In this document: one piece after another, positions 3,146 to 64,000 of the stretch
How the letters are laid out: every line of letters begins with the position of its first letter
Numbering within the stretch: position 1 is the stretch's first letter
DNA from: a virus
Taxonomy: Duplodnaviria > Heunggongvirae > Uroviricota > Caudoviricetes
DNA length: 64,000 nt
IMG/VR virus record: IMGVR_UViG_3300049044_000033
Location: 222,796 to 286,795 of that record
Strand: one strand, 5' to 3'
Notes under the pieces: generated by a model
What the model was told of the DNA's origin: nothing
The model's input: the letters and a program-made list of their open reading frames with translations, nothing else
Database searches by the model: none
Made by a program: the position numbers and the translations under genes

Positions 3146-3541
3146 TTAACTGATCGGCCCGATTCCGTCGAGCTGACCAAGCAGGTCTCCAAAAAGTTCG
3201 TCCGTGTCGTCATGCTTTACTGGCTCCCCATAGCCGAGAGTGAGACGCAGCATATCAACAAATACGCTCCGATCCGATTTCTCTCCAGCGGATCGATCTA
3301 GCATACCTTGGACGACATAAGAGACGATCTTGTAGTCGTTGCGGACATTTTCACATTCAAAATCTACCCCATGGATAGCAAGAACGGTATGAATCTGCGC
3401 ATGAATTCCGGCCGATTTATCTACCGGCTTGCGGAACGAGCTAATCTGAACAACATTGTCCGATGCTACGTTTCCGTTAGCAGCCTCTCCTTTTGTGTCG
3501 TCGCTTTCCATTTTGCGACTTTCTAGATAAACAACAGTCAT
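3146..3541 (-). CDS. hypothetical protein
   Basis: 131 aa ORF. 5' end uncertain. Confidence 0.35.
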   Translation of the reverse strand: MTVVYLESRKMESDDTKGEAANGNVASDNVVQISSFRKPVDKSAGIHAQIHTVLAIHGVDFECENVRNDYKIVSYVVQGMLDRSAGEKSDRSVFVDMLRLTLGYGEPVKHDDTDELFGDLLGQLDGIGPIS

Positions 3542-3741
3542 AAGACACAGCGTCCCCCTTTAGGCTATTCATGTATGGATTTGAAAGGAGCGACCCTCTT
3601 CTCATCCCACAACACAAATCACACCCTCAATTGCGTCTGTGCTGTAAAGGGCAGACTATGCGCTGACCCCTTGGGAGTCAAGCAATTTTAACACAAATGA
3701 AGTGGAAAATTAGAACTTAGGAAAGCTATTAACCCTGTAAG

Positions 3742-8246: not shown

Positions 8247-10118
8247 ATGTCCAACAATATTAAGAAACTTACAGATTACCAACATGCGCGTCTCAGGACA
8301 GAAATGTACCTGGGTAGTCGTGCGCCACATACACAGACGATTCTTCAGATTGTAGATGGCAATCCTCAACCTGTTGAAATGACCTGGGTGCCTGCACTAT
8401 ATACGGCTTTTCGTGAGGTTCTCGATAACGCACTCGACGAAGTGATTGGCCATGGACATGGTAGCACTGTTAGAGTTAGCTACAATCCTTTGAATCGTGA
8501 AATGTCTATCGAGGATGACGGTCGCGGTATTCCGATTGCATATGATGAAGCACATAAGATGCACCTAGCAACTCTTGTTATGACCGAAGCTCGTGCGGGT
8601 CGTAACTTTGAGGAACGTGGCGAAGTAGCAGGTACTAATGGTATCGGTGCTAGCGTGGTGAACTTCTGCTCCGAGTTTTTCCGCCTTGACATCCAAAAGG
8701 ACGGCGAACGTTTCCAGCAAGAGTTCACTCAGGGCAATGCAGTCTTTGGTGACGAGTTACAGTTTGGCAAGGCAAAGCTGTCCAAGAAGACAGGCACAAA
8801 TGGCACTAAGGTAACCTTCAAACTGAGTAGCGAAGTATTCCCTGATCTAACGCTGCCGGAAGAGTTCATTCAGAGTCGTGTTGTTGAAGTTGCAATCTGT
8901 AACCCACTGGTCAAGATCTTCTACAATGGCAAGCAGATCAAGGTTAAGCCACGAGCTGAGCAGACCCTCTTCCCCGGTAGGAAGCCAATATCCATTGAGA
9001 TCAAGGAAGGTAGCTTCCGTAGCCGTTTTTGGATTGTGCCTAACTGGACAACTGGCGGCGATCATGTTCACACCATCGTGAATAACATTCCGGCTTTCAA
9101 CGGCGGTGTCCACATCGACACTTTCCGTCGACTCTTCTATGGTAATTTGCTAACTGCGCTTGAGCGCGAAAGCAAGCGTCGTAAGCTCAGCCCGAACCGT
9201 AGTGATGTTACCGAAGGTGTTCTGATCTACAACATCACAAATATGCACGGTCCTAACTTTGATAGTCAGTCCAAGACACGACTAATCAATGAAGAAGTCG
9301 GTAAGACGATCAGGACCTATCTAGAAGATCCAGAACTCTACAAGGACTTCATCAAGAAGAACAAGGACTGGATTGAGGAAATCTATAAGCGTTGTGCTGA
9401 ACGCACGATGAAGAAGGATGCCGGTGATCTCGCTAGAGCGGCCAAGAAGAACCTGCGCAACAAGGTTCCCAAGCTTATGGACGCAAGTGGCAAGGATCGC
9501 TCTAAGTGTATTCTCTTCCTAGCTGAGGGTGACTCGGCTATTGCGGGCATGGGCAGCGTTCGTGATCCTGACTATCATGGCGGGCTTGGCATGAGGGGTA
9601 AGGTTCTCAACGTCAATGGCGAATCTCCTAAGAAGGTTGTCGATAACAAGGAACTTGCAGACATTATGAGCTGCTTGGGTCTGATTATCGGTCAGAAGGC
9701 AGACCGCAAGGAACTTCGCTACGGCAAGGTTTATGTGGCTCATGATATGGATCCAGACGGACTTAATATTGGCGCTCTCTTGATCAATTTCTTCCACACT
9801 TATTGGCCTGAGTTGTTTGAAGATCAGGATAATCCGTTCGTCCACATTTTCCGCACTCCCTTTATCATCGCAGAGAAGGGTAAGTCGCGCAAATACTGGT
9901 ATGCTCATAACTACCAGGACTTTAAGCCAGAAGACTACAGCGGATGGACGATCACTCGCGCAAAGGGTCTCGGCACTCTTACTCGTGAGGACTGGGAATA
10001 CTCTCTCAAGAATCCGGAAGTCTACCCAGTTGTGGATGATGGCAAGATGGGTGAGACACTGGACCTGATCTTTAACGGTAAGCGGTCAGACGATAGAAAA
10101 ACCTGGATTGGCCTTTGA
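8247..10118 (+). CDS. DNA topoisomerase II large subunit (T4 gp39-like, GyrB-type ATPase + TOPRIM)
   Basis: 623 aa. GHKL ATPase motifs (EVLDNALDE, GTNGIG) and TOPRIM LFLAEGDSAIAG. The TOPRIM region is contiguous with gene 39, so the T4 gp60 equivalent appears fused. Confidence 0.85.
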   Translation: MSNNIKKLTDYQHARLRTEMYLGSRAPHTQTILQIVDGNPQPVEMTWVPALYTAFREVLDNALDEVIGHGHGSTVRVSYNPLNREMSIEDDGRGIPIAYDEAHKMHLATLVMTEARAGRNFEERGEVAGTNGIGASVVNFCSEFFRLDIQKDGERFQQEFTQGNAVFGDELQFGKAKLSKKTGTNGTKVTFKLSSEVFPDLTLPEEFIQSRVVEVAICNPLVKIFYNGKQIKVKPRAEQTLFPGRKPISIEIKEGSFRSRFWIVPNWTTGGDHVHTIVNNIPAFNGGVHIDTFRRLFYGNLLTALERESKRRKLSPNRSDVTEGVLIYNITNMHGPNFDSQSKTRLINEEVGKTIRTYLEDPELYKDFIKKNKDWIEEIYKRCAERTMKKDAGDLARAAKKNLRNKVPKLMDASGKDRSKCILFLAEGDSAIAGMGSVRDPDYHGGLGMRGKVLNVNGESPKKVVDNKELADIMSCLGLIIGQKADRKELRYGKVYVAHDMDPDGLNIGALLINFFHTYWPELFEDQDNPFVHIFRTPFIIAEKGKSRKYWYAHNYQDFKPEDYSGWTITRAKGLGTLTREDWEYSLKNPEVYPVVDDGKMGETLDLIFNGKRSDDRKTWIGL

Positions 10119-10390
10119 TAAACGATCTTGGACCTAATTATGTTTATGTGAGCTTTAAAGGGGAGGATGAGGATTCCCTTGAAAGCCAGATATACCATTG
10201 GTTTAAGCCAACTGGTCACTGGATTCCATATCAGAAACTGATTTGGTCAGATGCACCTCGTGGCATAGACCGAAAACTCCTTGGCAAATGGTATAGCGTT
10301 GTACGCAATACAAAAGGTTTTATTTGGGACTACGAAGATTACGATCCCGATGTGGTTCTCATGTTCAAACTAACTTGGGGCGGGGCCTGA
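10115..10390 (+). CDS. FKLxWGG-family small protein, array member 1
   Basis: TTG start overlaps the topo II stop. C-terminus VLMFKLTWGGA. Confidence 0.55.
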   Translation: MINDLGPNYVYVSFKGEDEDSLESQIYHWFKPTGHWIPYQKLIWSDAPRGIDRKLLGKWYSVVRNTKGFIWDYEDYDPDVVLMFKLTWGGA

Positions 10391-10644
10391 TGGAAGTTTC
10401 TCTATGGTCCTTTGGAATTCATCCAACTACAAATGAATCCCTCGGGTGTGTGACTACTGACTCACCTGAGGTGTTTAAACTCTGGTTAAACTCTGCCTGT
10501 CCTAATCACCAGGTGATACTAGAATATGAACGCTCAGAAGGTGCCATTCGAGAAGAGGGTGGCCACCTTTGGAGATTGAATGTTAAGATGTTTTCTCGAA
10601 AAGAGGCAGTTCTATTCAAATTAAGATGGCATGATAACAAATGA
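10390..10644 (+). CDS. FKLxWGG-family small protein, array member 2
   Basis: ATG in TGATG overlap with member 1. C-terminus AVLFKLRWHDNK. Confidence 0.55.
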   Translation: MEVSLWSFGIHPTTNESLGCVTTDSPEVFKLWLNSACPNHQVILEYERSEGAIREEGGHLWRLNVKMFSRKEAVLFKLRWHDNK

Positions 10645-10895
10645 CCGAATGGTTTTCATCTGGACGTCTAGAAGTATCAGGCTTCTACCTTAATGAATCT
10701 GGTTGGCTTGTTAATCTCACGACAACTGATCCACTTGAAATTGAAGACTGGTGTTGTGATAACATTAGAGATGACTGGGAAATAAGAAAGATGCAAATGA
10801 GGAGCAGGTCTAAAGATCAGGAATGGTATGTCACCATCAAATTAGATTCTGACCGAGATTATATGCTTCTCAAACTTCGCTGGCAAAACGTATGA
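10641..10895 (+). CDS. FKLxWGG-family small protein, array member 3
   Basis: ATGA overlap. C-terminus YMLLKLRWQNV. Confidence 0.55.
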   Translation: MTEWFSSGRLEVSGFYLNESGWLVNLTTTDPLEIEDWCCDNIRDDWEIRKMQMRSRSKDQEWYVTIKLDSDRDYMLLKLRWQNV

Positions 10896-11161
10896 ACAAT
10901 CTTGATGAAACTTGGTATGAACCTTCGCCGGATGATCATATCGCGTATATCACTAGGCAGAGGATCATAGAGATCGGGAACAACCCTTCTGGTGATTTCC
11001 TCTTAATGGGAATCGCATATCGTCAAGGTTTCAGCATTTTATCCCGATGGTGTAGAGTTAATTGTAAGGACCCCGGCAAACCTGTTAATGTGCGCGGTGA
11101 GACAGGTTGGGCGTTTAACAACAAGGATGATGCCCTTCTCTTTAAGCTAACTTGGGGTTGA
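10892..11161 (+). CDS. FKLxWGG-family small protein, array member 4
   Basis: ATGA overlap. C-terminus DALLFKLTWG. Confidence 0.55.
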   Translation: MNNLDETWYEPSPDDHIAYITRQRIIEIGNNPSGDFLLMGIAYRQGFSILSRWCRVNCKDPGKPVNVRGETGWAFNNKDDALLFKLTWG

Positions 11162-11163
11162 GA

Positions 11164-11547
11164 ATGAAACGCACAAATACCCTCTATGATCTAGAAACCA
11201 CTGCCAAGTTCTGGTTGCTCCAACTGCGCGGTACAAAGATCCAAATTAACCGAGATAATGTTTCTTCTGCTTATGAGTGGTGTAGCTCTAATGTGAAGAA
11301 GCAATGGGCATGGCATCACAAGCCTGATCTAATTGATGATAAGACTCTAGTTCAAAATCTCAGATACCATTTCACCAGAGAATATACTGAAGATCAAGCT
11401 CTTAGTCGAATGGCTGAGGAAATAAGCGAAGATCTAGATCATGAGATCCTTTTCAACTTAGGAGTGGTTGCTTACAAGCAGGCATTTTTCTGGTTTGAAG
11501 ATGATAATGAGGCTATGCGGTTTAAGCTGTCGTGGGGTGAAAGGTGA
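11164..11547 (+). CDS. FKLxWGG-family small protein, array member 5
   Basis: ATG 3 nt after the previous stop. C-terminus EAMRFKLSWGER. Confidence 0.55.
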   Translation: MKRTNTLYDLETTAKFWLLQLRGTKIQINRDNVSSAYEWCSSNVKKQWAWHHKPDLIDDKTLVQNLRYHFTREYTEDQALSRMAEEISEDLDHEILFNLGVVAYKQAFFWFEDDNEAMRFKLSWGER

Positions 11548-11834
11548 AAGACTACGATTTCGTTACAGTCTATGTGCCTTACGCCGGTAGGACTGGTCGA
11601 ACTGAATTTAGCCATTTGATCTCTGAGGAAGTCATTGCTTGGCTAGATGAAAACATAGGTAAGGGAACAATCTCCTATCGTCACTGGCTCCTCGAGCACG
11701 ACAATGATACCTATGCTTGGACCTATAAGGGAACTTCCTACGACCCCTCGACCAACTATACCAAGATAGTTCGCGAGTTCTGTTTCCGTAACATGGATGA
11801 TGCTACTCGGTTCAAATTAGTCTGGGGCGGCTAA
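11544..11834 (+). CDS. FKLxWGG-family small protein, array member 6
   Basis: GTGA overlap. N-terminus DYDFVTVYVPYAG resembles member 7. C-terminus DATRFKLVWGG. Confidence 0.55.
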   Translation: MKDYDFVTVYVPYAGRTGRTEFSHLISEEVIAWLDENIGKGTISYRHWLLEHDNDTYAWTYKGTSYDPSTNYTKIVREFCFRNMDDATRFKLVWGG

Positions 11835-11841
11835 TTAATAG

Positions 11842-12141
11842 ATGAAAGCAGTAAATTACGAAGTCGTCACAGTCTACGTTCCTAATTCACCTAAAATTGG
11901 TAAGATGAATGGTAAGGATTCTTTCCTTTGTGCTGAGCTAATCGAATGGCTTACTATGATGTATGGCTATCAGGCTCCAAACAGCTATCATTTCATTGCC
12001 AACTTAGATAATAATGCCTATGGTTGGGCTTGGGGTCGTTCCTCAGAACCAATGTTCGTTCAATCCGATCCTTGCTGGACTTTCATGTTCAAGAAAGAGT
12101 CAGATGCCCTCATGTTCAAGCTAACTTGGGGTGGACATTGA
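11842..12141 (+). CDS. FKLxWGG-family small protein, array member 7
   Basis: N-terminus NYEVVTVYVPNSP. C-terminus DALMFKLTWGGH. Confidence 0.55.
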   Translation: MKAVNYEVVTVYVPNSPKIGKMNGKDSFLCAELIEWLTMMYGYQAPNSYHFIANLDNNAYGWAWGRSSEPMFVQSDPCWTFMFKKESDALMFKLTWGGH

Positions 12142-12146
12142 ATCAG

Positions 12147-12407
12147 ATGAGGTTCGACGCATTTGAGATTACTCGTGTTATGCGAGAGCTACAGTTACCT
12201 TGGGATCATGACTATAAATCTTGGGAACAAGAATGGACTGCTAATCTCACCAGAGTTATTGACGTTCTGACTCAATGGTGTAAGGATAGTGGCATAACGG
12301 GTCACTATAGCTTTGGCTTCACTCAGATCGAACTTTGCGTAACCTTTCAAGAGAAGAAGGACGCAATGTTGTTCAAGCTGAGGTGGCACAATGGAGCGAG
12401 AGCCTGA
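12147..12407 (+). CDS. FKLxWGG-family small protein, array member 8
   Basis: ATG 6 nt after the previous stop (the six-frame ORF 12024.. is an upstream read-through). C-terminus DAMLFKLRWHNGARA. Confidence 0.5.
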   Translation: MRFDAFEITRVMRELQLPWDHDYKSWEQEWTANLTRVIDVLTQWCKDSGITGHYSFGFTQIELCVTFQEKKDAMLFKLRWHNGARA

Positions 12408-12594
12408 ATCGGGTTATGTGAGATTTACCCCTCCTGTGGAAAACAGGAGTGATCGTTATTTCCGTGTCTGGGAAATACTAGACGAAATGAATCTCCGAAG
12501 ACTAGTAGCGTTCTGCTACGAGGGAAATATGAAATTGGTAGGTCTTTGCTTTCCCACTAAGCAGGAAGCAATGACTTTTAGGTTGAAACTCTAA
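12391..12594 (+). CDS. FKLxWGG-family small protein, array member 9 (divergent)
   Basis: 67 aa. C-terminus EAMTFRLKL. Confidence 0.45.
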   Translation: MEREPESGYVRFTPPVENRSDRYFRVWEILDEMNLRRLVAFCYEGNMKLVGLCFPTKQEAMTFRLKL

Positions 12595-12845
12595 TGGCTA
12601 CAGTTCACAGAAACGGTATTCCTCCTAAGCGTCTACTTCACAAGAAGATAGAGACCTTCTCCGATATGGAATTCAAAGAAGATCAGATTGTTGATTGGTT
12701 GAAAGAGAACATCGATCACCGTGTCCAATATGACTACACAGTATTCAACGGATCTAAGGGTAAGCTCAACCGAACAATTGAATTCACAGTTTGGTTCCAG
12801 ACCAAGCAGGATGCTGAAAAGTTCTCCGAGGTATGGAAGAAGTGA
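12594..12845 (+). CDS. array member 10 (divergent C-terminus)
   Basis: 83 aa, ATG in TAATG overlap. C-terminus QDAEKFSEVWKK keeps the D-A-x-x-F...W spacing. Confidence 0.45.
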   Translation: MATVHRNGIPPKRLLHKKIETFSDMEFKEDQIVDWLKENIDHRVQYDYTVFNGSKGKLNRTIEFTVWFQTKQDAEKFSEVWKK

Positions 12846-13138
12846 ATACTAGGATTTATATCGTTGATCGTGTTGATCAAGTAAAGTGGTATGTGGATGA
12901 AAGCCAAGCTACCACCTTCACACTTCAGCTTGAAGACAATCACAAAGCCATCAGGGAGTGGCTTGAGCTCATGACGCAAGATATTGTGGTTATCAGCGGC
13001 CAAGGCGTTATGCCTCGCGTGGGCACGGCTGATCATCCCACAAACGTCTATGCTGCTATCCAGCGCAACCAGTATCGTCTATATTTCGCCAACCCCGACG
13101 ACGCGATGCTATTCAAACTCAGATGGGGTGGTGAATAA
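12833..13138 (+). CDS. FKLxWGG-family small protein, array member 11
   Basis: C-terminus DDAMLFKLRWGGE. Stop overlaps the next ATG (TAATG). Confidence 0.55.
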   Translation: MEEVNTRIYIVDRVDQVKWYVDESQATTFTLQLEDNHKAIREWLELMTQDIVVISGQGVMPRVGTADHPTNVYAAIQRNQYRLYFANPDDAMLFKLRWGGE

Positions 13139-13320
13139 TGCCTAGTTGTAATCTCTATAAAGTAGCCCTACTGAGTGATAGAGTCGAGGGTCCTAATGTG
13201 CTGGTATTCTACGCCTATCACATGAGCGAAGCCAAAGCCAAAGCCGCAGCAATTCGTTGGGGACAAGCTCAACATCCTGGCGCTAATATCAGTGTGGATA
13301 GGATTGACAAAGCCACATAA
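13138..13320 (+). CDS. array member 12 (divergent, C-terminal extension)
   Basis: 60 aa. AKAAAIRWGQ resembles the family motif, followed by a 20 aa tail. Confidence 0.4.
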   Translation: MPSCNLYKVALLSDRVEGPNVLVFYAYHMSEAKAKAAAIRWGQAQHPGANISVDRIDKAT

Positions 13321-13356
13321 GACATTAATGTAGGCACATGAGCTTAAGAAGCTCTA

Positions 13357-13743
13357 ATGTTTAATCTTTGGCGGCCAGTGAAACTCAGCTATCATCCTTT
13401 CCTCAGTCCCTTCCGCCCTTATAAGGTTGTGTGGCGTCTTCCATATGACCTTGTAAGTTCGCACGAACGTGGATCTCCCTATGGGGAAAGGAATATTCAA
13501 GGTCATCGTTGGGTGATTCGGCGAGATGCTCAGGATTGGCTAATGGCTAGGGCTCCAGCAAAGTGGCTCAAGATCTTCAACATTGCATCTGTGAAATTCT
13601 ACATCAGAAGTGGCTTGATTCCTTTCACCCTCAAAGCTAATAATGGGCGATTGGAAATGGGAGGGAAGCCTCCTGCGATATGGTTTGCTCGAAAGGCAGA
13701 TGCTTTGATTTTTAAGTTGACCTATGGTGTTAGGGATGAATGA
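13357..13743 (+). CDS. FKLxWGG-family small protein, array member 13
   Basis: C-terminus DALIFKLTYGVRDE. Confidence 0.5.
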   Translation: MFNLWRPVKLSYHPFLSPFRPYKVVWRLPYDLVSSHERGSPYGERNIQGHRWVIRRDAQDWLMARAPAKWLKIFNIASVKFYIRSGLIPFTLKANNGRLEMGGKPPAIWFARKADALIFKLTYGVRDE

Positions 13744-14092
13744 AGATCCTGAGATTGAAGAGGTCTCAAAGGTATTCTGCCCCGCTGGATTGAAGTTCAC
13801 TCGTGGGTATCGTCTTCGGCTTCCAGTTGGGCCTGTTCCAATTAATCACAAGCAAAATGGCTACTTCAGACATGGCTTCAAAAATGAAGTCCGCCATTGG
13901 CTAAAAGCCAACGTGGGAGAGACGGTTAGTCACGCGGAGTGGGAACTTGAGGGTAAAGGCGACTGGTTGTTTGTAGGTAGTCAACAAGCCAGCTTTGAGA
14001 GTCAGTATGCTAGGCAAACTCTAGTCAACTTCTTATTTGCTGACAAGAGCAAAGCTATGATGTTTAAGCTGGTTTGGATGGGCAGGCTGTGA
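13736..14092 (+). CDS. FKLxWGG-family small protein, array member 14
   Basis: ATG in ATGAATGA overlap with member 13. C-terminus KAMMFKLVWMGRL. Confidence 0.5.
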   Translation: MNEDPEIEEVSKVFCPAGLKFTRGYRLRLPVGPVPINHKQNGYFRHGFKNEVRHWLKANVGETVSHAEWELEGKGDWLFVGSQQASFESQYARQTLVNFLFADKSKAMMFKLVWMGRL

Positions 14093-14337
14093 CAGTCTAC
14101 TGTGCTAAAACGGGCCAGGAGCTCATAGAAATCTCCGTAAACTTATGGGATAAGGGCTTCAAGTTTAAGGCTGATGAATTCTTCGACTTAGTAGATAGTT
14201 GGGCCATTAAACAAGGTTGGTCTATTCCTCGAGATTGTCACCATATTAGTTCAACCCATGGTTACCAACTCCGCTTGCAAACCTTCTGCTTCAGAGACCC
14301 TAACAAGGCTATGATGTTTAAACTAGCCTGGGCTTAA
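14074..14337 (+). CDS. FKLxWGG-family small protein, array member 15
   Basis: N-terminus MDGQAVTVYCAK. C-terminus KAMMFKLAWA. Confidence 0.5.
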   Translation: MDGQAVTVYCAKTGQELIEISVNLWDKGFKFKADEFFDLVDSWAIKQGWSIPRDCHHISSTHGYQLRLQTFCFRDPNKAMMFKLAWA

Positions 14338-14345
14338 CCAGTTTA

Positions 14346-14375
14346 TTGACATGCCTCCTGTGCGCTAAGTAAAAT
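14346..14375 (+). promoter_or_regulatory. sigma70-like promoter candidate upstream of topo II medium subunit
   Basis: TTGACA, then an 18 nt spacer, then TAAAAT. Located between the array end and the 14400 start. Confidence 0.3.
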
Positions 14376-14399: not shown

Positions 14400-15749
14400 A
14401 TGACTCAAAATAGCTCTGATTATATCCTAGATACTTCACGTGAATATTCTATCTACGTCTGCGAATCTCGCGCCATCCCTAAAGTGACCGATGGTCTTAA
14501 GGATGCCCAACGCAAAGCACTCTGGCTTGTAAAGGGCAAAGCTGATAAGATCAAGACTGTTTCCCTTGCTGGTGAAATGATCTCAAGCGGTCTTTACCTA
14601 CATGGCGACGCATCGGCAGCATCTTCGATCTCTATGTTGGCAGCACCCTATGTGAACAATATTCCTTTGCTAGATGGCATTGGATCGTTCGGTACTCGTG
14701 TTGCGCCCGTAGATGGCATTGGTGCACCTCGTTACACCTACGTAAAGCGCGGTAAAGCAGCTCAGGAACTCATGTTTCCTGATATGGATATTGTCCCAGT
14801 TAAGGAGAACTATGATGGATCTACCATCGAGCCTCAGCACTTTCTTCCTCTTATTCCCACGGTTCTTCTCAACGGAGTCAGTGGCATCGCTGTCGGTTGG
14901 AGCACTGAAATTCTACCCCGCAGCTTTAAGAGTCTCCTCGACGCTACTCTAATGATCTTGGATGGGAAGAAGATCAAGCGTATCCCTCCTTCCTACGAAC
15001 TCTACAAAGTCGGTGTAAAGCACCTTGAGGAAAACTCTTGGGAGTTTACAGGTAAACTCAACATCGTTGATACCTCAACGATCAAGATCACTGAGTTACC
15101 GCCTGAACTGACTTTAGAGAAGTTCAAAGAGCGTTTGAATACGTTTGAGGATGAGAACAAGATTTCCTCCTATACTGATCGCTCTACTGACACCATCGAT
15201 ATTACGATCAAGATGGCACGAGGCGCCTGTAAGGGTTGGCACGAAACTAGAGCTATTGAGTATTTCAAGCTCAAGCAAAAGAAGTCAGAGCGTATCGTTG
15301 TCATCGACTGGAATGGCACTTCTATTCGCCAATATGAGAACGCTGAGAAGCTCATTGAAGATTTCGTGGCTTGGCGTTTGAACTGGTATGTTGTTCGTTA
15401 TGAGAACAAGGTAGCCAAAGATGATTATGAACTTGGCTTCTGGAAGGGTGTGAAGCTTTGCTTTGATAGCAAGCTGCCTGCTCGTTTGGGCACAATTAAG
15501 AGTCGAGCCGAACTAGATGCTGATGTTCAGACCACTACTGGAAAGCTTAACTTAGATTCAAAGCGTATTGACCGCATCGTAAATCTACCTGCTCATCGCT
15601 GGACCAAGGATGCGTATGGTGATGTGTTGGCTAAGATCAAGGAACTTGAAGCCAATATTAAGGAATACAAAGCCATCCTCAAGGATCCTGAACGTCGCAA
15701 GGCAATCTACCGTGAAGAGCTCGAAGCTCTGAAGAAAGTTAGGTTTTGA
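14400..15749 (+). CDS. DNA topoisomerase II medium subunit (T4 gp52-like, GyrA-type cleavage/religation domain)
   Basis: 449 aa. N-terminus ESRAIPKVTDGLKDAQRKALW is typical of GyrA/ParC/gp52 with the winged-helix and active-site Tyr region. Confidence 0.8.
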   Translation: MTQNSSDYILDTSREYSIYVCESRAIPKVTDGLKDAQRKALWLVKGKADKIKTVSLAGEMISSGLYLHGDASAASSISMLAAPYVNNIPLLDGIGSFGTRVAPVDGIGAPRYTYVKRGKAAQELMFPDMDIVPVKENYDGSTIEPQHFLPLIPTVLLNGVSGIAVGWSTEILPRSFKSLLDATLMILDGKKIKRIPPSYELYKVGVKHLEENSWEFTGKLNIVDTSTIKITELPPELTLEKFKERLNTFEDENKISSYTDRSTDTIDITIKMARGACKGWHETRAIEYFKLKQKKSERIVVIDWNGTSIRQYENAEKLIEDFVAWRLNWYVVRYENKVAKDDYELGFWKGVKLCFDSKLPARLGTIKSRAELDADVQTTTGKLNLDSKRIDRIVNLPAHRWTKDAYGDVLAKIKELEANIKEYKAILKDPERRKAIYREELEALKKVRF

Positions 15750-16414
15750 TGGCGTCTAACCCTCTTGGTGAAACTAGGGCCTTGTTTGAGATTGCCCACT
15801 TGAGTCTCAACATGCCTGCTCTTTTGAGAGATGCACCAAAGGGTGACGGTCATCCTGTTATTGTGCTGCCTGGTTTCTGCGCTGGGCAGCACAGCACATT
15901 AGTCCTCCGCTACCTACTCAACGAGTTAGGTTATAAACCGATCGACTGGGGACAAGGCGTCAACTTAGGTCCGAGTGATTCACAAGATGCTGCCTTAGAT
16001 GCACTCTTGGCTAAATCTTCTGAGCACCAGCAAGTCAGTTTGATTGGGTGGAGTCTCGGCGGAATGTATGCTAGAGCTCTAGCAAATGAGTTTCCCGATA
16101 AGGTGCGCAGAGTCTTTACCCTAGGAACCCCGCACAAGAGCGATCCAACATCTAGCAACCTACGTGCTATCTTTGAGCTAGTTAGTTCTAAGAAGCTCTC
16201 AGATTTGGATTTAGAAGAGGTTCTCAGGATGATCAAAGATCCCCCAGTCCCGCTAGTGAGCCTCTATACCAAAAGTGACGGCGTGGTAAACTGGAAGGAT
16301 TGTATCGCGGATGGTCCTTTGACAGAAAACGTCGAGGTCACAGGAAGCCACTTAGGACTTACCCACAACCTCGACGTCCTTAACGCCCTGTTGGAGCGGC
16401 TACCTCAACGGTAG
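15746..16414 (+). CDS. alpha/beta-hydrolase fold protein (lipase/esterase-like)
   Basis: 222 aa. GWSLGG nucleophile elbow (GxSxG). ATGA overlap with the upstream stop. Confidence 0.6.
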   Translation: MMASNPLGETRALFEIAHLSLNMPALLRDAPKGDGHPVIVLPGFCAGQHSTLVLRYLLNELGYKPIDWGQGVNLGPSDSQDAALDALLAKSSEHQQVSLIGWSLGGMYARALANEFPDKVRRVFTLGTPHKSDPTSSNLRAIFELVSSKKLSDLDLEEVLRMIKDPPVPLVSLYTKSDGVVNWKDCIADGPLTENVEVTGSHLGLTHNLDVLNALLERLPQR

Positions 16415-21752: not shown

Positions 21753-22061
21753 TCAACCTTCAAAAGGCGGGCATGTTAAATCGCCGCTATGAGTGAGCTT
21801 AAACAGCACAGCATCGTTGGCTACCTCGAAGCTCACATTGCGTTGAGTCAAGCTGATCTTATCAACTGAATACTTTCCAGTCGTGTTGTCATTGAGCCAT
21901 ACTATATCAACAAAGCTGAGGTTTCGCTTAATCCCTACTCGATATGTGAACTTAGCGTTGATTCTGCGATGAGGATGACGAAAGGTATTGATCTTCTTTT
22001 GATCAGCCTTTGTCATCTTCTTAAGGATAGATGTGATCGATCCCTTCACTTGCCACCCCAT
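21753..22061 (-). CDS. FKLxWGG-family small protein (second cluster)
   Basis: C-terminal region DAVLFKLTHSGD. Confidence 0.5.
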   Translation of the reverse strand: MGWQVKGSITSILKKMTKADQKKINTFRHPHRRINAKFTYRVGIKRNLSFVDIVWLNDNTTGKYSVDKISLTQRNVSFEVANDAVLFKLTHSGDLTCPPFEG

Positions 22062-22411
22062 GCTAATTTGAATAACAGGGCATCACTAGCAGATTCAAAC
22101 TGGATGTAAAGCTCAAAGTGGGAGACAACTGGGAAATTAAAGATCGAATCCTTTGCTTCTGCCTTAGCAGGTTCAAAGATAGCAATCCAGGTTGACAAAT
22201 AGGCCATTTTAGTCTGGTTGCTAGCTAACCAATCAATCAAGAGTTGAGTTGGGCAGACTTGCTTCTCAACTTCATCCCAGAAGGTAAGAGGACCGAAGTT
22301 GTCAAGCATGACCTTATGGAGAGTTTTATCCTTAAACTCATCAGTCTTAAAGTCGCCATCCAGGCAGCCAACCCGCAAGCGGGGCAAGTTGTCTATTTTT
22401 CTCACTAGCAA
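22046..22411 (-). CDS. FKLxWGG-family small protein (second cluster)
   Basis: C-terminus DALLFKLAWGGK. Confidence 0.5.
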   Translation of the reverse strand: MLVRKIDNLPRLRVGCLDGDFKTDEFKDKTLHKVMLDNFGPLTFWDEVEKQVCPTQLLIDWLASNQTKMAYLSTWIAIFEPAKAEAKDSIFNFPVVSHFELYIQFESASDALLFKLAWGGK

Positions 22412-22755
22412 TACCTAAGCTTAAACAACATCGCATCCCGCTTCCTCACAAACGCAAACCGAAGGTGGCTCGCGATGTAGGGGAGAATGAAGATCTTATT
22501 ATCAAAGAGATTGATCTGAAGATATGCCCAACGAGCATATCTATAATCCGTGTGACCATTCCAGGCCTTCTGACCTGTCATAGTCTCACAGAACGAGGCC
22601 AACTCTGGATTAATCAAGTCAATGTTTTCTTCATGATCATCTGCGATATATCGGGTAATAATCTCAGGACCAATAGGAACGTCAAAGAAAAACCGATACC
22701 TCTTTGAATCGAAGATCTGTGAGTTCGGCGTTGAAGCCGGAAGCATTGAGCTCAT
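22405..22755 (-). CDS. FKLxWGG-family small protein (second cluster)
   Basis: C-terminus DAMLFKLRYC. Confidence 0.5.
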   Translation of the reverse strand: MSSMLPASTPNSQIFDSKRYRFFFDVPIGPEIITRYIADDHEENIDLINPELASFCETMTGQKAWNGHTDYRYARWAYLQINLFDNKIFILPYIASHLRFAFVRKRDAMLFKLRYC

Positions 22756-23087
22756 TTGCCACCGAACGTGAGCTTAAACATCGCTGCGATATCCCCTTTA
22801 GACTTGGGAAAAAGGAAGAAGGTGAAATCCCGATAAGAGCTATCAAGCATCATGAGAACTGGCAGATTATGCTGTTCATAAAACTCAGTAGCCTCTGGTC
22901 CACAAATCCTATCGGCCGTATCCGGATAGTCCGTTCTCGGTCGAAGGACAGTGAGTTCGTATCCCTTAATTGGAACGACATGGAATTGTTGCTCCATAGT
23001 GGATACGAACTCAGTATAATCGCAATGGTCAGTCATTCGACCTCCAACAGTTCTTCCTTCGACTTGGACCAGCGCGAGAAGGTCCAA
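22752..23087 (-). CDS. FKLxWGG-family small protein (second cluster)
   Basis: C-terminus AAMFKLTFGGK. Confidence 0.5.
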   Translation of the reverse strand: MDLLALVQVEGRTVGGRMTDHCDYTEFVSTMEQQFHVVPIKGYELTVLRPRTDYPDTADRICGPEATEFYEQHNLPVLMMLDSSYRDFTFFLFPKSKGDIAAMFKLTFGGK

Positions 23088-24187
23088 GCCTGCTTCATGC
23101 GATTCAGCCTCTGACCCATTGCCGGACCAGGCTTCATACCAGTTTCCAGCAGGTCCTTGCCCGAAACCGGGAAGGTCGGGATCACGAAGTTCCTCGCATA
23201 GTCGGCCAGGATAGTTTCACCCTGAACTTCAGCAAAGCTTACAACATGATCCCGAGGAAATTCGTCCCGAGTCAGCAGCACTTCAATCTTCTGCTCATCC
23301 AGGAAGACACCCCGATTGCGGATCATATTCCGAACCTTGGCTTCCTCGTGCGAGCTCATCTTCCAGAACTTGAAGAACTTCTCTTCGTCAGAGCTGGCAA
23401 CCAGTGTCGACAGAGCAGCCAGGGCATCATCGGCGCGAGACAGTTCAGCAGGATTGAAGCGGAACAGACCCAGTGCCCGATTAACCCGAGTCTTGAAGAT
23501 TGCATCAACAATGCGAGTCCGACCCGGCATCTTGGGATCCAGCAGCTTCTGCATTTCCAGCCAGAACCGCTCGACACTAACGACGTTCAGCTTATCCAGC
23601 ACCTCACCCTCGGCGAAGATATCCAGCGTCTCCTGATCCATCTTAGCATCGAAACGGGCTGCGAACCGGAAGAAGCGCAGAATACGCAGGTAGTCCTCTT
23701 CGACCCGCTTGCGCGCATCGCCTACGAATCGAACCACACGATTCTTCAGATCTTCCTGGCCCTTGAAGTAGTCGAATACGTTACCTTCAAAGTCCATCGA
23801 CATTGCGTTGAAGGTCAGGTCACGTCGCTCTGCATCCTCTTCAAACGACCTCGTGAATTCAACCTCAGCATGACGACCGTCAGTCTCGACGTCGATCCGC
23901 AGCGTCGTAACTTCGAAGGGTTCTTTGTCCACAACCAGCGTAGCCGTGCCGTGCTGGATACCAGTGGGAATAAAGCCGAACTTGTTGGTATCGGCGATCA
24001 CCTTCATCTCATCCGGCGTTGCGTCGGTGCAGAAGTCCACATCCTTAGCTTCGACGCCCAGCATGGCATCGCGGACACAACCGCCCACAAAACGAATCTG
24101 GAAGCCTGCTGCTTCAAAAGCAGCACCCAGCTTGTTCGTTTCCGGGGTCATCAGTTTGTCCAGCACGTCGATCTCCTTGTTGTTCAT
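23033..24187 (-). CDS. tRNA nucleotidyltransferase (CCA-adding enzyme) / poly(A) polymerase family
   Basis: 384 aa. GGCVRDAMLG...DVDF head-domain motif of class II nucleotidyltransferases. The plus-strand 322 aa ORF opposite is a shadow. Confidence 0.8.
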   Translation of the reverse strand: MNNKEIDVLDKLMTPETNKLGAAFEAAGFQIRFVGGCVRDAMLGVEAKDVDFCTDATPDEMKVIADTNKFGFIPTGIQHGTATLVVDKEPFEVTTLRIDVETDGRHAEVEFTRSFEEDAERRDLTFNAMSMDFEGNVFDYFKGQEDLKNRVVRFVGDARKRVEEDYLRILRFFRFAARFDAKMDQETLDIFAEGEVLDKLNVVSVERFWLEMQKLLDPKMPGRTRIVDAIFKTRVNRALGLFRFNPAELSRADDALAALSTLVASSDEEKFFKFWKMSSHEEAKVRNMIRNRGVFLDEQKIEVLLTRDEFPRDHVVSFAEVQGETILADYARNFVIPTFPVSGKDLLETGMKPGPAMGQRLNRMKQAWTFSRWSKSKEELLEVE

Positions 24188-24210: not shown

Positions 24211-24465
24211 TTAGGAGTCAACCGCTTTGTGGCACCAAGTATCCCAAGAGAGTCTAGCCAACATAGCGGCTTTTGGATCTAAGAAGAGATGCCAAGACAT
24301 TATGCCATCCTCCTCTGCCATTGATTTATACCACCTCAGGTTCACATCACGCTTGCCACTATAATGGAAGTCCCACGTAGGGTCGTTAGCTTCAAGCCAG
24401 TCGCAGAATGAATCAAATTCGTCCGAGGGGACGTTGACTGTGATGTGAACCTTGTTAGCTGACAT
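24211..24465 (-). CDS. small protein, distant FKL-family relative
   Basis: Internal ATG (MSANK...) avoids overlap with the HNH gene. C-terminus AAMLARLSWDTW. Confidence 0.35.
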   Translation of the reverse strand: MSANKVHITVNVPSDEFDSFCDWLEANDPTWDFHYSGKRDVNLRWYKSMAEEDGIMSWHLFLDPKAAMLARLSWDTWCHKAVDS

Positions 24466-25219
24466 CGACGAGATCCACAGGACTATTGCGGACCTTCTTT
24501 TCCCAATTGTCTCGTCGAACTTGATCCCTACGGGCAATCTCAGCCAAGACTTCATCCACGGCAGACTTCCACTCGGGTTTCACGTAGAGCAAGACCGCAA
24601 TCTTCCACGTGAGGAGTTCCCTCTTCGTGACCTTCTTCTCGTCTGTCTTAACTTTGCGTTCCTTGAGCTTGGCAGCTTTCATCTTACAATAGATGCGCCA
24701 TGCCTCTGGATTCTGTCGTAGCTTGAGGAACTTATTGAATTTCATTTCGCCGCGCAGGTTATTACAACCCGAACAGGTCATAACCACATTGCTCATGTGG
24801 TCAGTGCCACCTCGACTCTGGCACACAATATGCTCAAGAGTAGCACGTCGATTATTCGAAAGAGGAGTTTGACCCGGAAGCCAAGTCTGCTGACCACAGA
24901 AGTAACAGAGCCCACTTTGCTTTTCGAAAAGCTTGCTGGTCTTGTTCCGCCGGGCAATGGTGAACTTAGCGTACCACCACTCCTTATCCTCAGGCGTATG
25001 CCACTTTCTGCGGACTGCTCTGCCTACGACTTTACCGTAACTCTGTCCATCAGGCCGTTTAGCAGGTGCGCTGTTTGAAACTCGAGCAAAGCTGAACGGG
25101 TAGCTTAATGAGGTCGACGAGACCGATAACGGTGTTGACGACAACGGAACCGATGACAGATCCGGCCACGATACCGAGGAAGAGGACGAGCCTTCCAAAA
25201 CCGATCCGCTTACGTCCAA
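24455..25219 (-). CDS. HNH endonuclease (homing-endonuclease-like)
   Basis: CYFCGQQ...ATLEHIVCQSRGGTDHMSNVVMTCSGCNNLRG is an HNH/zinc-finger core. The Ser-rich N-terminus suggests the true start is downstream of 25219. Confidence 0.65.
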   Translation of the reverse strand: MDVSGSVLEGSSSSSVSWPDLSSVPLSSTPLSVSSTSLSYPFSFARVSNSAPAKRPDGQSYGKVVGRAVRRKWHTPEDKEWWYAKFTIARRNKTSKLFEKQSGLCYFCGQQTWLPGQTPLSNNRRATLEHIVCQSRGGTDHMSNVVMTCSGCNNLRGEMKFNKFLKLRQNPEAWRIYCKMKAAKLKERKVKTDEKKVTKRELLTWKIAVLLYVKPEWKSAVDEVLAEIARRDQVRRDNWEKKVRNSPVDLVDVS

Positions 25220-27764: not shown

Positions 27765-28208
27765 CTATATGGTTAAGCGAAACAAGACCATATGCTTCGG
27801 GGTATCGGACAATGGGGAATCAATCATCTGAACAATCAAAGGGGTGACCTTAATAGCTCGTTCGCTACAAACTTCATTGCTTCTCTTTAGGTCATTGCTG
27901 ACCATACCCAAATCAATCCAGCGACAATAACCCATATCTGTAAAGCTACTAGGTGATACCTTTATAGCATAGAGGTAAGCGTGAAGATACGCAGCAACTT
28001 TAGATTGCCCATGCTTCTCGTGAAGTTCCCAGAGGTTCCTACCCAATCGAGTGCAGGTCTTCTTCAATCGACCTTTCTCGTAAGGCGTGATACCTAGAGT
28101 GTTTACAGATACCTCTTCACATTCCATCTTGTCCTTGATATCAAGAGCTAGGTTACGGATAAGACGGAGGTCTTTGATAATAGTCTTATAGAGCTCTGCA
28201 ATATCCAT
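27765..28208 (-). CDS. hypothetical protein (147 aa)
   Basis: ORF. Its stop overlaps the upstream gene's start. Confidence 0.45.
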   Translation of the reverse strand: MDIAELYKTIIKDLRLIRNLALDIKDKMECEEVSVNTLGITPYEKGRLKKTCTRLGRNLWELHEKHGQSKVAAYLHAYLYAIKVSPSSFTDMGYCRWIDLGMVSNDLKRSNEVCSERAIKVTPLIVQMIDSPLSDTPKHMVLFRLTI

Positions 28209-28699
28209 TACCGGTATCCCAATTCCTTGATATCATTGCGCACCTGAGTCTCAATCTCGCCTAAGTCGTTAGAACCTTGCCAAGTGGATCGGCTCAAAGC
28301 CCGAGGATCATTGGCCGCCAAGCCAATACCCCAAACTCTGTCCCATGGGGACGCTTCCACTAGAGTCGTGCCATCCGTAGCCAGTAGCCAATTCAGGCAA
28401 TTGGTATCCTGAGTGAACTTGGCAAAGTTGGCTCGATATACGATCAGCTTCCGGTTAGCCTCCCATTTGGACGACACAAAACCTCGTACCAAGCGACCAG
28501 TGGCTTTCTGAACCTTGGGATTGTCACTTTTCATAATGATGTCAAGGGCGTCATCATCACCAAACAGTCGGGCTTTCTCAGCCATCATGAACTGTTCCGC
28601 GCAGTTGTATTCCACACCCTCTATGGTAAACCAGCTAGGATACCACTGGCTTCCAGGTCCACCATAGAAGAATGTGAATTGCTCGCTCACTGGCACCAA
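28208..28699 (-). CDS. NADAR / YbiA-like (DUF1768) domain protein
   Basis: FFYGGPGSQWYPSWF...CAEQFMMAEKARLFGD...LVEASPWDRVWGIG matches the NADAR family signature. Confidence 0.75.
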   Translation of the reverse strand: MVPVSEQFTFFYGGPGSQWYPSWFTIEGVEYNCAEQFMMAEKARLFGDDDALDIIMKSDNPKVQKATGRLVRGFVSSKWEANRKLIVYRANFAKFTQDTNCLNWLLATDGTTLVEASPWDRVWGIGLAANDPRALSRSTWQGSNDLGEIETQVRNDIKELGYR

Positions 28700-29130
28700 C
28701 CTGCCCGCTTGCCGCCAATATAGGGACGAGCATAACCACGAGCAATCAACATATTAGTGAGGCTCTCTCCGCCCACGAACACATCAGCATCAACGCGCCC
28801 GCCATACTTGTCCCACTTGAGGTTGGTCAGCGTAACCTTGCGACCAGCAGTGAGGATCACGCGAGTTGTAAATGCCTTGGCCGCTTGTGCGTTATACTTT
28901 TCTGAAGGGCACTTGCCGCGCATCTCAGGGGTATCAACACCACGAACCCGGACGCCAATCCGGCTCAGTTCAGGCGGCAGACCAGTCATCTTAATGTAAA
29001 AGGTATCTCCGTCATAGATACCCACAACATCGTAGGTATAGGTCGGAGCAGCGATTGCTGGGGTTGCGACAAAAGCCGCAAGAGCAAAAAGGGCGTTACG
29101 AATAATCTTCATAACACCCTTTTTACACAT
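28687..29130 (-). CDS. secreted staphylococcal-nuclease-like (SNase/thermonuclease) protein
   Basis: Signal peptide, then VVGIYDGDTFYIK...RVRGVDTPEMRGKC...YGGRVDADV...LIARGYA, the SNase GDT...R.GIDTPE pattern. Confidence 0.65.
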   Translation of the reverse strand: MCKKGVMKIIRNALFALAAFVATPAIAAPTYTYDVVGIYDGDTFYIKMTGLPPELSRIGVRVRGVDTPEMRGKCPSEKYNAQAAKAFTTRVILTAGRKVTLTNLKWDKYGGRVDADVFVGGESLTNMLIARGYARPYIGGKRAGWCQ

Positions 29131-29152
29131 TTAGGTTAGGCTGTCAATACCC

Positions 29153-30352: not shown

Positions 30353-30354
30353 TT

Positions 30355-31071: not shown

Positions 31072-31129
31072 TGATTAGAAAAGAAAGGGCGACATTGCTG
31101 CCGCCCCTTCTCCTATAGGTTAGTCCAAC

Positions 31130-34052: not shown

Positions 34053-34124
<72 letters not shown>

Positions 34125-34170
34125 CATGTTGTGTGCTCTCTTTGTAGCACCTACATACCTATTTAGCAAT

Positions 34171-63357: not shown

Positions 63358-63934
63358 GAAGGTTTAGCTGAACCACAATCACAAGCGCATAACTCAGGGC
63401 ATGAGCTCTCTTAAAGCCATAGAGACTATCGTCACCGGCTTGCCAGATCTCTGCTTTGATCTCGTCCCACTCTCTACCTATAAGGTGCTTCTTACGCGGG
63501 CGGAGAAGTGCTAGGAAGATTGCTAGGTCATCTAGAGTTTGTGGCTTATAGGCTTCGATGAGATCATAGGTAGGGATACCGTCGATCGTACCACCTAGCT
63601 GGAAGAGCTGCTCACAAATATCTTTGTCATAGAGCAAATCCCACAAGGGTGGCCTAGCGACTAGTTGATTAAGATGCTCTTCATCCCTGACATCTTTGTA
63701 GACGTTTAGGTTTAGGAAATCCAGCTTGAAATAGCCTCGCTCCTCAGCTTCCTCGTAGGGAAGGCTAGAAAACCCCGTAAGAGGATCCTGAGGGATGGCT
63801 TGGAAATATACACCCACGTTATGTCGGCGTAGCTCTCCGTTCTGTATCATGCTCGCAGGGATAGATAGAAGCCCCTTAAGAGCTTCTTCTCGATTAGCAA
63901 AATCGATGTCAACGTCAGGGACAAACTTGCCCAT
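63320..63934 (-). CDS. compact protein carrying DnaE (Pol III alpha)-like palm/finger motifs
   Basis: VPDVDIDF (compare DnaE PDIDIDF), GYFKLDFLNL (compare GLLKMDFLGL) and YGFKRAHALSYALV (compare YGFNKSHAAAYAL), in the same order but within 204 aa. The upstream end may extend beyond the window. Confidence 0.45.
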   Translation of the reverse strand: MGKFVPDVDIDFANREEALKGLLSIPASMIQNGELRRHNVGVYFQAIPQDPLTGFSSLPYEEAEERGYFKLDFLNLNVYKDVRDEEHLNQLVARPPLWDLLYDKDICEQLFQLGGTIDGIPTYDLIEAYKPQTLDDLAIFLALLRPRKKHLIGREWDEIKAEIWQAGDDSLYGFKRAHALSYALVIVVQLNLLVEKANGSEPTV

Positions 63935-64000
63935 TAGATAAACCTTAGCTTGAATAGAGCCGCGAGGGCGGGCATAGTCTGAAAATCGAGAACGACAATG

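Follow-up and report, generated by a model that had tools for sequence, protein, structure and literature searches.

The internal proteins of phage T4 are packaged, and the T4 capsid-targeting sequences are located at the N-terminus and removed by cleavage. For Bacillus phage G, a lineage-specific expansion of a zinc ribbon to approximately 35 copies has been described and called "unprecedented" (Iyer et al. 2021, PMC7824862). Here, we analyzed a stretch of 64,000 nucleotides of a virus assigned to the Caudoviricetes (IMG/VR virus record IMGVR_UViG_3300049044_000033, positions 222,796 to 286,795; hereafter the window), in which 15 plus-strand open reading frames (ORFs; A01 to A15) of 60–128 amino acids fill the interval between the genes encoding the two subunits of a type II topoisomerase. 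A first-pass annotation had regarded them as 15 paralogous genes of no described family. Our analysis confirms the absence from curated libraries and reveals that 14 of the 15 ORFs belong to a previously undescribed, phage-borne, single-domain family of small proteins, whereas A12 scores below 0 bits with both family profiles. As to their role, we consider it an even chance that these tandem arrays of an undescribed mini-domain family combine a fixed scaffold with specialized surfaces and thus serve as a repertoire of binders.

The terminal motif of the family in its strict form, A-x-x-[FL]-[KR]-[LM]-x-[WYF] at most eight residues from the stop codon, occurs 17 times in the window, as compared to a mean of 0.35 and a maximum of 2 in 200 shuffled sequences. 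In addition, MAFFT alignments revealed a second conserved helix, W-[LC]-x-x-N, located 40–60 residues upstream of the terminal motif and common to the N-terminal bodies, and several paralogues can be aligned over their full length. A06, the closest paralogue of A07, shares 33% identity with it over 95 amino acids (E=1e-14), and A06 and A14 are 34% identical over 77 amino acids. Thus, contrary to what had been supposed, the bodies are not unrelated to each other. The consensus reads E-x-x-x-W-[LC]-x-x-N-[IVC]-x-G-x-W ... x-F-x-F-x-x-x-D-A-M-L-F-K-L-T-W-G-G, and we found the W-[LC]-x-x-N helix, the x-F-x-F strand, and, within approximately 15 residues of the C-terminus, the terminal D-A-x-x-F-K-L-x-W helix. 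In the numbering of A03, column conservation amounts to 100% for W37, 96% for F68, 96% for A74, 97% for F77, 96% for K78, 99% for L79, 95% for W81, and 68% for D73. Nearly all remaining columns are close to maximal entropy, and low alignment occupancy indicates that both hairpins vary in length. Likewise, the residues following the conserved Trp are 0–15 in number and variable in composition, without conserved last residues. Membership was further assessed with a second, deep hidden Markov model (HMM), seeded with 113 sequences mostly from outside the window; ten window members that were not part of this seed were recognized with E-values from 4e-3 to 1e-14. The HMM scores also rule out that A12 is a truncated family member. 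This ORF has no Pfam match, and its orthologues (38–70% identity) occupy the same array position in the related loci L007, L041, L042, and L034.

Searches of Pfam, PHROGs, NCBIfam, PADLOC models, and PDB sequences with more than 60 members, including canonical metagenomic ones, yielded nothing above noise, and the same holds for the Acb1 family of Pfam. No known annotated domain was matched in these libraries. The closest sequenced relatives of the window are Sinorhizobium phage Phosso (469 kb), which shares approximately 70% nucleotide identity with it in the topoisomerase genes, and Agrobacterium phage Atu_ph07 (490 kb), and not the classical T4-like phages. Judged by these nearest relatives, the genome is, contrary to the initial assumption, not of the T4 type and represents a jumbo phage similar to Atu_ph07 and Phosso; proteins of the window were found on contigs of 406–462 kb of the Joint Genome Institute (JGI). 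In the literature on the motif and on Phosso we found nothing relevant, and neither the study on Atu_ph07 and AP-J-162 (PMC11242549) nor a survey of jumbo phages (PMC7824862) mentions the family.

For a census of the family in Phosso, all ORFs of the whole genome were searched with two family HMMs. This analysis revealed 66 family ORFs at E<0.01, corresponding to approximately 8–10% of the protein-coding genes. Both HMMs detected 55 of these ORFs, and 47 reached E<1e-4; all of them are annotated as "hypothetical protein". They are distributed over 37 loci and form ten tandem runs of 6, 5, 4, 4, 4, 4, 4, 3, 3, and 2 genes. Twenty members are located in the first 50 kb, and only 2 of the 66 in the region from 200 to 300 kb, which harbors the capsid, portal, sheath, and baseplate genes. 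Family genes share the strand with replication and translation genes and are nearly absent from the structural module.

Beyond these phages, representatives of 1.84 billion clusters formed at 50% identity were searched exhaustively with HMMER and the window-based profile, which retrieved 422 sequence clusters at E<=1e-3, mostly of 65–120 amino acids with the domain ending at the C-terminus; all matches inspected are unnamed metagenomic proteins. Some proteins of 143–256 amino acids represent natural fusions of two or three domains (P0011, P0014, P0015, P0017, P0026, P0038, and P0082), and the 210-residue protein P0042 carries an N-terminal extension that is apparently membrane-spanning. Related loci were also sought with degenerate DNA patterns. 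Dense clusters were observed in a 5-kb contig with 8 members, in a 35-kb contig with 10 domains in 4.5 kb, and in another contig with 8 members in 3 kb; the 417-kb IMG/VR contig L040 harbors 25 consecutive members in 7.2 kb. Unrelated contigs that carry arrays include L012 and L014. The canonical motif was found in viral contigs of 36–182 kb, and two intact members reside in a prophage-like region of Novosphingobium guangzhouense (NZ_LYMM01000033.1, L005; 2034-2264 and 2939-3295, minus strand), neighboring genes for a collagen-like fiber protein, a lysozyme, and a 486-residue P-loop protein. Damaged copies were noted in a Methylobacterium genome (L006) and in a proteobacterial metagenome-assembled genome (L004), where the copy is frameshifted and lies beside transposase-like ORFs. 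Tblastn searches of 50,697 phage records with single sequences and a consensus detected only Phosso, with 4 of its approximately 60 copies, indicating that this method is too insensitive, and a tblastn search of 72,556 plasmids yielded nothing credible. For Atu_ph07, we obtained no tblastn match, no HMM match in the first 9.5 kb, and none among the BFVD fold matches, which is weak evidence of absence.

We next turn to the fold of the domain. An AlphaFold model of A03 calculated with 113 family sequences reached a predicted local distance difference test (pLDDT) score of 85 and a predicted template modeling score of 0.69, as compared to an earlier, poor model based on 27 paralogues (pLDDT 61). 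The model comprises beta-strands at residues 10-18 and 21-28, a helix at 31-41, beta-strands at 46-53 and 61-68, and a second helix at 71-82. Hence, the domain is predicted to be a two-layer alpha/beta sandwich of 60–80 residues with the topology beta-beta-alpha-beta-beta-alpha, in which a beta-hairpin is followed by helix 1 (E-x-x-x-W-[LC]-x-x-N), a second beta-hairpin ending in x-F-x-F, and helix 2 (D-A-M-L-F-K-L-T-W-G-G). Most of the conserved residues have aromatic or aliphatic side chains and would constitute the core of the scaffold. Since the model places the motif at helix 71-82, the supposed C-terminal tag corresponds to helix 2 of a folded domain. On a helical wheel, A, F, and W of helix 2 lie on one face and M, L, and L on the other, a reading of the conservation and not of contacts in the model; two hydrophobic faces are expected if helix 2 packs against both the sheet and helix 1.

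The fold was matched by DCoH, ArgR-C, CutA, PII-like, and ACT domains, several of which belong to the DCoH-like fold class. This class largely serves protein–protein interaction and oligomerization. DCoH-like proteins (PCD/DCoH, the ArgR C-terminal domain, and the RNA polymerase alpha N-terminal domain/RPB11-like proteins) have the beta-beta-alpha-beta-beta-alpha fold in common with the family; however, identity is only 5–11%, there is no Pfam match, and there is no evidence for common descent. With regard to the catalytic histidines of PCD, the family alignment contains no column dominated by His, and a PCD/DCoH profile match is absent in more than 60 members. A Foldseek search against viral predicted structures returned nothing at E<1e-3.

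Given that DCoH, ArgR-C, CutA, and PII-like proteins are obligate oligomers, these fold matches, together with the natural fusions P0011, P0014, P0017, and P0082, could indicate that the proteins are subunits of homo- or hetero-oligomers, for instance a shell or scaffold in the infected cell, with helix 2 as the oligomerization interface. However, approximately 60 paralogues with hypervariable surfaces and variable hairpins are hard to fit into a regular lattice, and neither a profile or Pfam match to shell proteins of bacterial microcompartments nor their hexamer-forming fold was found. Therefore, we regard an oligomeric assembly of this kind as quite improbable.

The position of the motif in helix 2 also bears on the possibility that it is a portable signal, i.e., a capsid-targeting sequence, a ClpXP degron, or a docking peptide, which directs unrelated effector bodies to one machine. 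The conservation of helix 2 at every position, including the polar K78 and D73, would be compatible with such a signal, and these phages encode ClpX, in Phosso together with ClpP and ClpS. On the other hand, the motif is confidently predicted as a helix of the folded domain, in which its two hydrophobic faces would make it part of the hydrophobic core, and helix 1 and the strands are common to all bodies. Moreover, the tails of 0–15 residues after the Trp are unlike C-terminal degrons in that the extreme C-terminus is not conserved. Nor does the family share a cleaved N-terminal peptide, the hallmark of T4-type capsid targeting, since its N-termini cannot be aligned, and its genes avoid the structural module. 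Taken together, these results speak against the shared terminal tag, the ClpXP degron, and the capsid-targeting signal that had been put forward, and we consider a portable signal very unlikely. The Clp annotations of Phosso comprise ClpP, ClpX, ClpS, and two other Clp-family ATPase genes (30200-30814, 380983-382242, 398039-398338, 115020-115697, and 125457-127793), a nearly complete phage-borne Clp system; we found nothing that links these genes to the family.

It had further been suggested that the last ~25 nucleotides of each gene are alike at the DNA level and constitute a homology patch that supports shuffling of cassettes. The similarity is present, but it is fully accounted for by the protein motif. 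Within the motif, each of the four Ala and six Leu codons occurs, and where residues are identical, third codon positions show an identity of 0.39. The 27-nucleotide patch shows a mean identity of 58%, and the longest exact run between patches of the window measures 6 nucleotides in the median and 15 at most. The junctions thus show no DNA conservation beyond coding constraint, and the gene order, which would be rearranged between relatives in the case of integron-like cassettes, is strictly collinear in five arrays. Thus, the randomized synonymous sites and the collinearity speak against both shuffling and a recombination site maintained by selection.

The history of the array was followed by a gene-by-gene comparison of the window with L007 (a 389-kb NCBI contig), L041 (465 kb), L042 (182 kb), and L034 (125 kb). 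The five versions are strictly collinear, with the core block A08-A09-A10-A11-A12-(A13)-A14, and differ only in which whole genes occur at fixed positions. Relative to L007 and L041, A01, A03, and A15 are found only in the window, A15 being absent from L042 and L034 as well, whereas G05 and the HNH-like G04 are restricted to L007 and L041; extra members are present in L042 and L034. At the same locus, the topoisomerase genes of Atu_ph07 are adjacent, without any intervening gene. The numbering of gp551 and gp553 in AP-J-162 (PMC11242549) points to apparently one ORF between them, a candidate member. Four members are present in Phosso and in a 340-kb Logan contig, and L007 contains 13 members and an inserted non-family ORF, as compared to 14 members in the window. 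Consequently, the notion that this locus carries variable accessory genes was borne out, with 0, approximately 1, 4, 13, or 14 members, and the family is not represented by a single unexpanded copy throughout the relatives. No pair of paralogues within the window exceeds approximately 33% identity, in contrast to up to 75% between orthologues. The array is therefore ancient, and these values also rule out a recent "accordion" amplification. Hence, the array is old and vertically inherited, its order being kept across at least four phages, with gain and loss of whole genes.

Selection was assessed from the proportions of nonsynonymous (pN) and synonymous (pS) differences in orthologue pairs of the window and L007. 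Synonymous sites have reached saturation (pS 0.66–0.86), and pN ranges from 0.16 to 0.35 in eight pairs and from 0.42 to 0.52 in the two most divergent ones, resulting in pN/pS values of 0.20–0.69. The genes had been described as fast-diverging, and indeed their nonsynonymous divergence (dN) of 0.18–0.90, as compared to 0.08–0.12 for the flanking topoisomerase genes, indicates that they evolve approximately 1.5–11 times faster than their neighbors. At non-core positions, identity amounts to 51% between orthologues and to 11% between paralogues, and therefore each paralogue has its own constrained surface. Purifying selection thus maintains the specific sequence of every paralogue, and the ORFs are real coding genes.

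These data also bear on the question of whether the ORFs are filler of a selfish or neutral kind, which recombination at the 3′ patch or homing endonucleases would have spread and which would have no function for the phage. An HNH-like ORF is inserted in the array of L007 and L041, an HNH endonuclease gene is located between the family genes C01 and C02, and copy number differs between relatives, all of which could be read in this way. However, pN is well below pS in most orthologue pairs, non-core positions are retained between orthologues despite saturated synonymous sites, gene order is kept across four phages, recent duplicates are lacking, and the patch shows randomized synonymous sites and short exact runs. 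Filler is thus largely refuted by the selection data, and we attach next to no probability to it. The insert of L007 (10300-10737) and L041 (approximately 3280-3700) is a non-family ORF of 145 amino acids with an HNH_3-like motif recognized by eye and no Pfam match; homing endonucleases may use family arrays as insertion sites.

Another possibility is that the family comprises small nucleic-acid-binding proteins, such as RNA chaperones, regulators binding to tRNA or mRNA, or transcription factors, which diversified for different RNA or DNA sites. Arrays adjoin tRNA-related genes, namely the gene for the CCA-adding enzyme in the window and in Phosso, Thg1 in L012, and tRNA genes in the first 20 kb of Phosso, and some members are strongly basic, with isoelectric points (pI) of 10.5 for A13 and 10.1 for B01. 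However, two thirds of the members are acidic (median pI 6.1, range 4.1–10.5, the lower limit being represented by D01), a single Lys is the only conserved basic residue and leaves no conserved basic patch, and no RNA-binding Pfam family was matched. Moreover, the 400–450 kb region of Phosso, in which its densest tRNA cluster is located, contains only 3 members; an association of the family with tRNA genes was rejected, since the density of members does not track that of tRNA genes in this genome. The mixed charge speaks against a nucleic-acid ligand shared by all members. Binding of RNA or DNA by individual members is conceivable, yet as an explanation for the family as a whole we consider nucleic-acid binding unlikely.

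We therefore return to the repertoire of binders as the explanation we favor. The array proteins would be co-translated, cytoplasmic, and made during infection. On the fixed scaffold, the variable surfaces would be specialized, one paralogue for each host or phage macromolecule, and binding would serve host takeover, counter-defense, or regulation. The conservation of every paralogue between phages makes a specific partner for each of them probable. An arsenal of anti-defense or host-takeover effectors is plausible. More tentatively, and with clearly less confidence than in the general reading, we envisage a "binder library" with a constant core of 60 residues and approximately 60 paralogues per genome, each with a distinct surface conserved in its own right and each neutralizing or redirecting a different host protein or defense system. 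With respect to co-translation, the codons of the terminal Trp-Gly-Gly (TGGGGNGG) may double as the ribosome-binding site of the next gene, and G-runs of TGGGGNGG are located 5–15 nucleotides upstream of the next start in many junctions of the array.

Several points weigh against this explanation. A start codon within 17 nucleotides follows all nine GG-tailed members of the window and 8 of the 13 others, and thus the association of the tail with a ribosome-binding site is weak. All eleven consecutive positions of helix 2 and the Gly-Gly cap are conserved, including K78 and D73, which could reflect a shared partner or an oligomerization interface beyond core packing. Furthermore, stable housekeeping roles during infection explain the strongly conserved surfaces of the paralogues no less well than does an arms race with host defense, and no homologue of known function was found in curated libraries.

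The features of the window are compiled in Table 1. The starts of the array genes were set from the sequence itself. The same genes are present in independent JGI calls on the 406,756-bp contig and on a 2.2-kb contig of another sample, with an earlier ATG of A14 as the sole difference. The array is therefore not an assembly artifact, and these calls, together with the ORF list, corroborate the 15 consecutive plus-strand ORFs initially reported. From A01 to A15, the distances at the junctions are -1, -4, -4, +2, -4, +7, +5, -17, -1, -13, -1, +36, -8, and -4 nucleotides. Nearly every junction had been described as an ATGA, TGATG, or TAATG overlap; the genes overlap at 10 of the 14 internal junctions, and of the remaining four, three are gaps of 2–7 nucleotides and one is a gap of 36 nucleotides. 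The flanking genes correspond to a phage type II topoisomerase operon, with a GyrB-type ATPase and Toprim upstream and a ParC/GyrA-type DNA_topoisoIV domain downstream, according to precomputed Pfam annotations of both the parent contig and L007.

Table 1. Family members and flanking features in the window. E-values refer to family HMMs; percentages denote identity.
Feature	Position	Strand	C-terminus	Remarks
Topoisomerase II large subunit gene, GyrB-type, 623 aa	8247..10118	+		Upstream boundary of the array; HATPase_c, DNA_gyraseB, Toprim (precomputed Pfam, parent JGI contig); L007 orthologue 84% (aa)
A01, family member, 91 aa	10115..10390	+	VVLMFKLTWGGA	TTG start, overlapping the topoisomerase large-subunit stop as TTGA; E=4e-10; E=4e-3 with independent deep HMM
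A02, family member, 84 aa	10390..10644	+	EAVLFKLRWHDNK	Both HMMs; L007/L041 orthologue 64%
A03, family member, 84 aa	10641..10895	+	RDYMLLKLRWQNV	E=1e-12; AlphaFold-modeled
A04, family member, 89 aa	10892..11161	+	DDALLFKLTWG	E=9e-9, outside HMM seed; orthologues in L007, L041, L042 55-59%
A05, family member, 127 aa	11164..11547	+	NEAMRFKLSWGER	E=1e-10; orthologue 44%
A06, family member, 96 aa	11544..11834	+	DDATRFKLVWGG	GTG start in GTGA overlap; E=1e-16; orthologue P0005/G03 68%, pN/pS 0.28
A07, family member, 99 aa	11842..12141	+	SDALMFKLTWGGH	E=4e-15
A08, family member, 86 aa	12147..12407	+	KDAMLFKLRWHNGARA	E=4e-14; orthologues in L041, L042, L034 41-59%
A09, family member, 67 aa	12391..12594	+	QEAMTFRLKL	Missed by deep HMM; membership via orthologue G07 (E=2e-6, outside HMM seed); orthologues 47-75%
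A10, family member, 83 aa	12594..12845	+	KQDAEKFSEVWKK	Degenerate motif DAEKFSEVWKK; E=1e-11; orthologues in four phages, Phosso Ph2 32%
A11, family member, 101 aa	12833..13138	+	DDAMLFKLRWGGE	E=1e-11; orthologues 62-68%
A12, ORF, 60 aa	13138..13320	+		Outside the family; -0.8 and -0.1 bits with the two family HMMs
A13, family member, 128 aa	13357..13743	+	ADALIFKLTYGVRDE	E=2e-8; basic, pI 10.5
A14, family member, 118 aa	13736..14092	+	SKAMMFKLVWMGRL	E=1e-14; JGI start 13724
A15, last family member, 82 aa	14089..14337	+	NKAMMFKLAWA	GTG start in GTGA overlap; E=6e-9
Sigma-70-like promoter match	14346..14375	+		TTGACA-18-TAAAAT, 11/12, consensus match only; in 62-nt gap 5′ of medium-subunit gene
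Topoisomerase II medium subunit gene, gp52/ParC-like, 449 aa	14400..15749	+		Downstream boundary of the array; DNA_topoisoIV (precomputed Pfam, parent contig); 90% (aa) to L007
B01, family member	21753-22061	-		HMM
B02, family member	22046-22411	-		HMM
B03, family member	22405-22755	-		HMM
B04, family member	22752-23087	-		Motif and only the HMM that included B04
C01, family member, 114 aa	24211..24555	-		KAAMLARLSWDTW; E=1e-7
C02, compact family member, 67 aa	25265..25468	-	EDALMFKLTWGGE	E=5e-11
D01, minimal acidic family member, 63 aa	35315..35506	-	SDAFRFRLQFDEALIK	E=2e-5; pI 4.1
E01, family member, 138 aa	62941..63357	-	SDALRFKLSF	E=2e-10; downstream of DnaE-like fragment gene
C-terminal end of another member	63934..64000	-		Cut by window edge; motif match, LAALFKLRFI-stop

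The motif is not confined to the topoisomerase locus, as at least eight further members and one cut-off copy, all on the minus strand, are present in the window. B01 to B04 form a tandem run of four (21753..23087), which adjoins the gene for a CCA-adding enzyme (23033-24187, minus strand, PolyA_pol domain), and a syntenic run of four members was found beside the same gene in the Phosso-like locus L009. In Phosso, the gene for the CCA-adding enzyme (369506-370678) is likewise followed by a four-member run. In the window, the longest ORF of B04 extends over 55 nucleotides into the 3′-end of the gene for the CCA-adding enzyme, and the true start of B04 may be located further downstream. The HNH endonuclease gene between C01 and C02 (Pfam HNH_5/HNH) extends from 24455 to 25219 on the minus strand. 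In L003 and Phosso, a DnaE-like fragment gene likewise has family members directly upstream of it. These short genes, encoding DnaE-like DNA polymerase III alpha fragments of approximately 180–200 amino acids (window 63320-63934, minus strand; Phosso 97210-97743 and 321328-321903; L003 1082-1615), are flanked by family members in all three cases; DnaE may be split or fragmentary in these phages.

Apart from the family, a gene for an alpha/beta-hydrolase-fold protein (15746-16414, plus strand; Abhydrolase_1, E=2e-9) overlaps the stop codon of the medium-subunit gene by 4 nucleotides and is not present at this position in Phosso, Atu_ph07, or L007. The GC content is 0.52–0.54 at 28000–32000, as compared to approximately 0.47 in the rest of the window. 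A tRNA-Thr gene (GGT; 34053-34125, minus strand) is the only tRNA gene in the window; Phosso has many, mostly clustered elsewhere in its genome.

A single unrecognized family thus accounts for approximately 8–10% of the genes in this clade of jumbo phages, in which most genes lack an assigned function, and the domain, its profile, and a confident predicted fold unite hundreds of "hypothetical proteins" into one tractable problem. Phosso and Sinorhizobium meliloti represent a cultured pair, which together with the 55–66 copies of the phage makes systematic interaction and deletion screens feasible. Provided that the targets belong to host defense or to the core machinery of the host, many new inhibitors could be drawn from the family, which would also offer a small scaffold for binding that evolved in nature. 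The binder library, if it existed as envisaged, would surpass every expansion of a single family observed in a phage so far and would establish a new class of counter-defense or host-takeover proteins. If the targets are of another kind, the family would still be a clear case of growth of a very large phage genome by ancient, stably inherited tandem expansion and not by recent amplification.

In comparison with known systems, the protein family is new, whereas the phenomenon is not: small accessory proteins of large phages are known to undergo lineage-specific expansion, in the present case on an unusual scale. Like the anti-CRISPR and anti-restriction clusters, the array is a run of small, packed accessory genes that varies between relatives; however, these clusters mix unrelated families and turn over rapidly, whereas the array consists of one old, collinear family, the members of which are each conserved. 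The internal-protein locus and the small early accessory clusters of T4 resemble the array in that small, fast-evolving, and non-essential-looking genes of varying content reside between conserved replication genes. In contrast to the array, the T4 clusters mix unrelated families, and the internal proteins share an N-terminal cleaved targeting sequence, whereas our family shares a C-terminal structural helix and avoids the structural module. The zinc ribbon of phage G is likewise a small domain with dozens of paralogues in a jumbo phage and was proposed to be a diversified binder or regulator. Unlike the zinc ribbon, the family described here has the fold of an alpha/beta sandwich without metal ligands, is expanded further (approximately 55–66 members in Phosso) and packed into tandem arrays of up to 25 genes, and extends to viral contigs of 36–180 kb and to prophage-like regions of bacteria.

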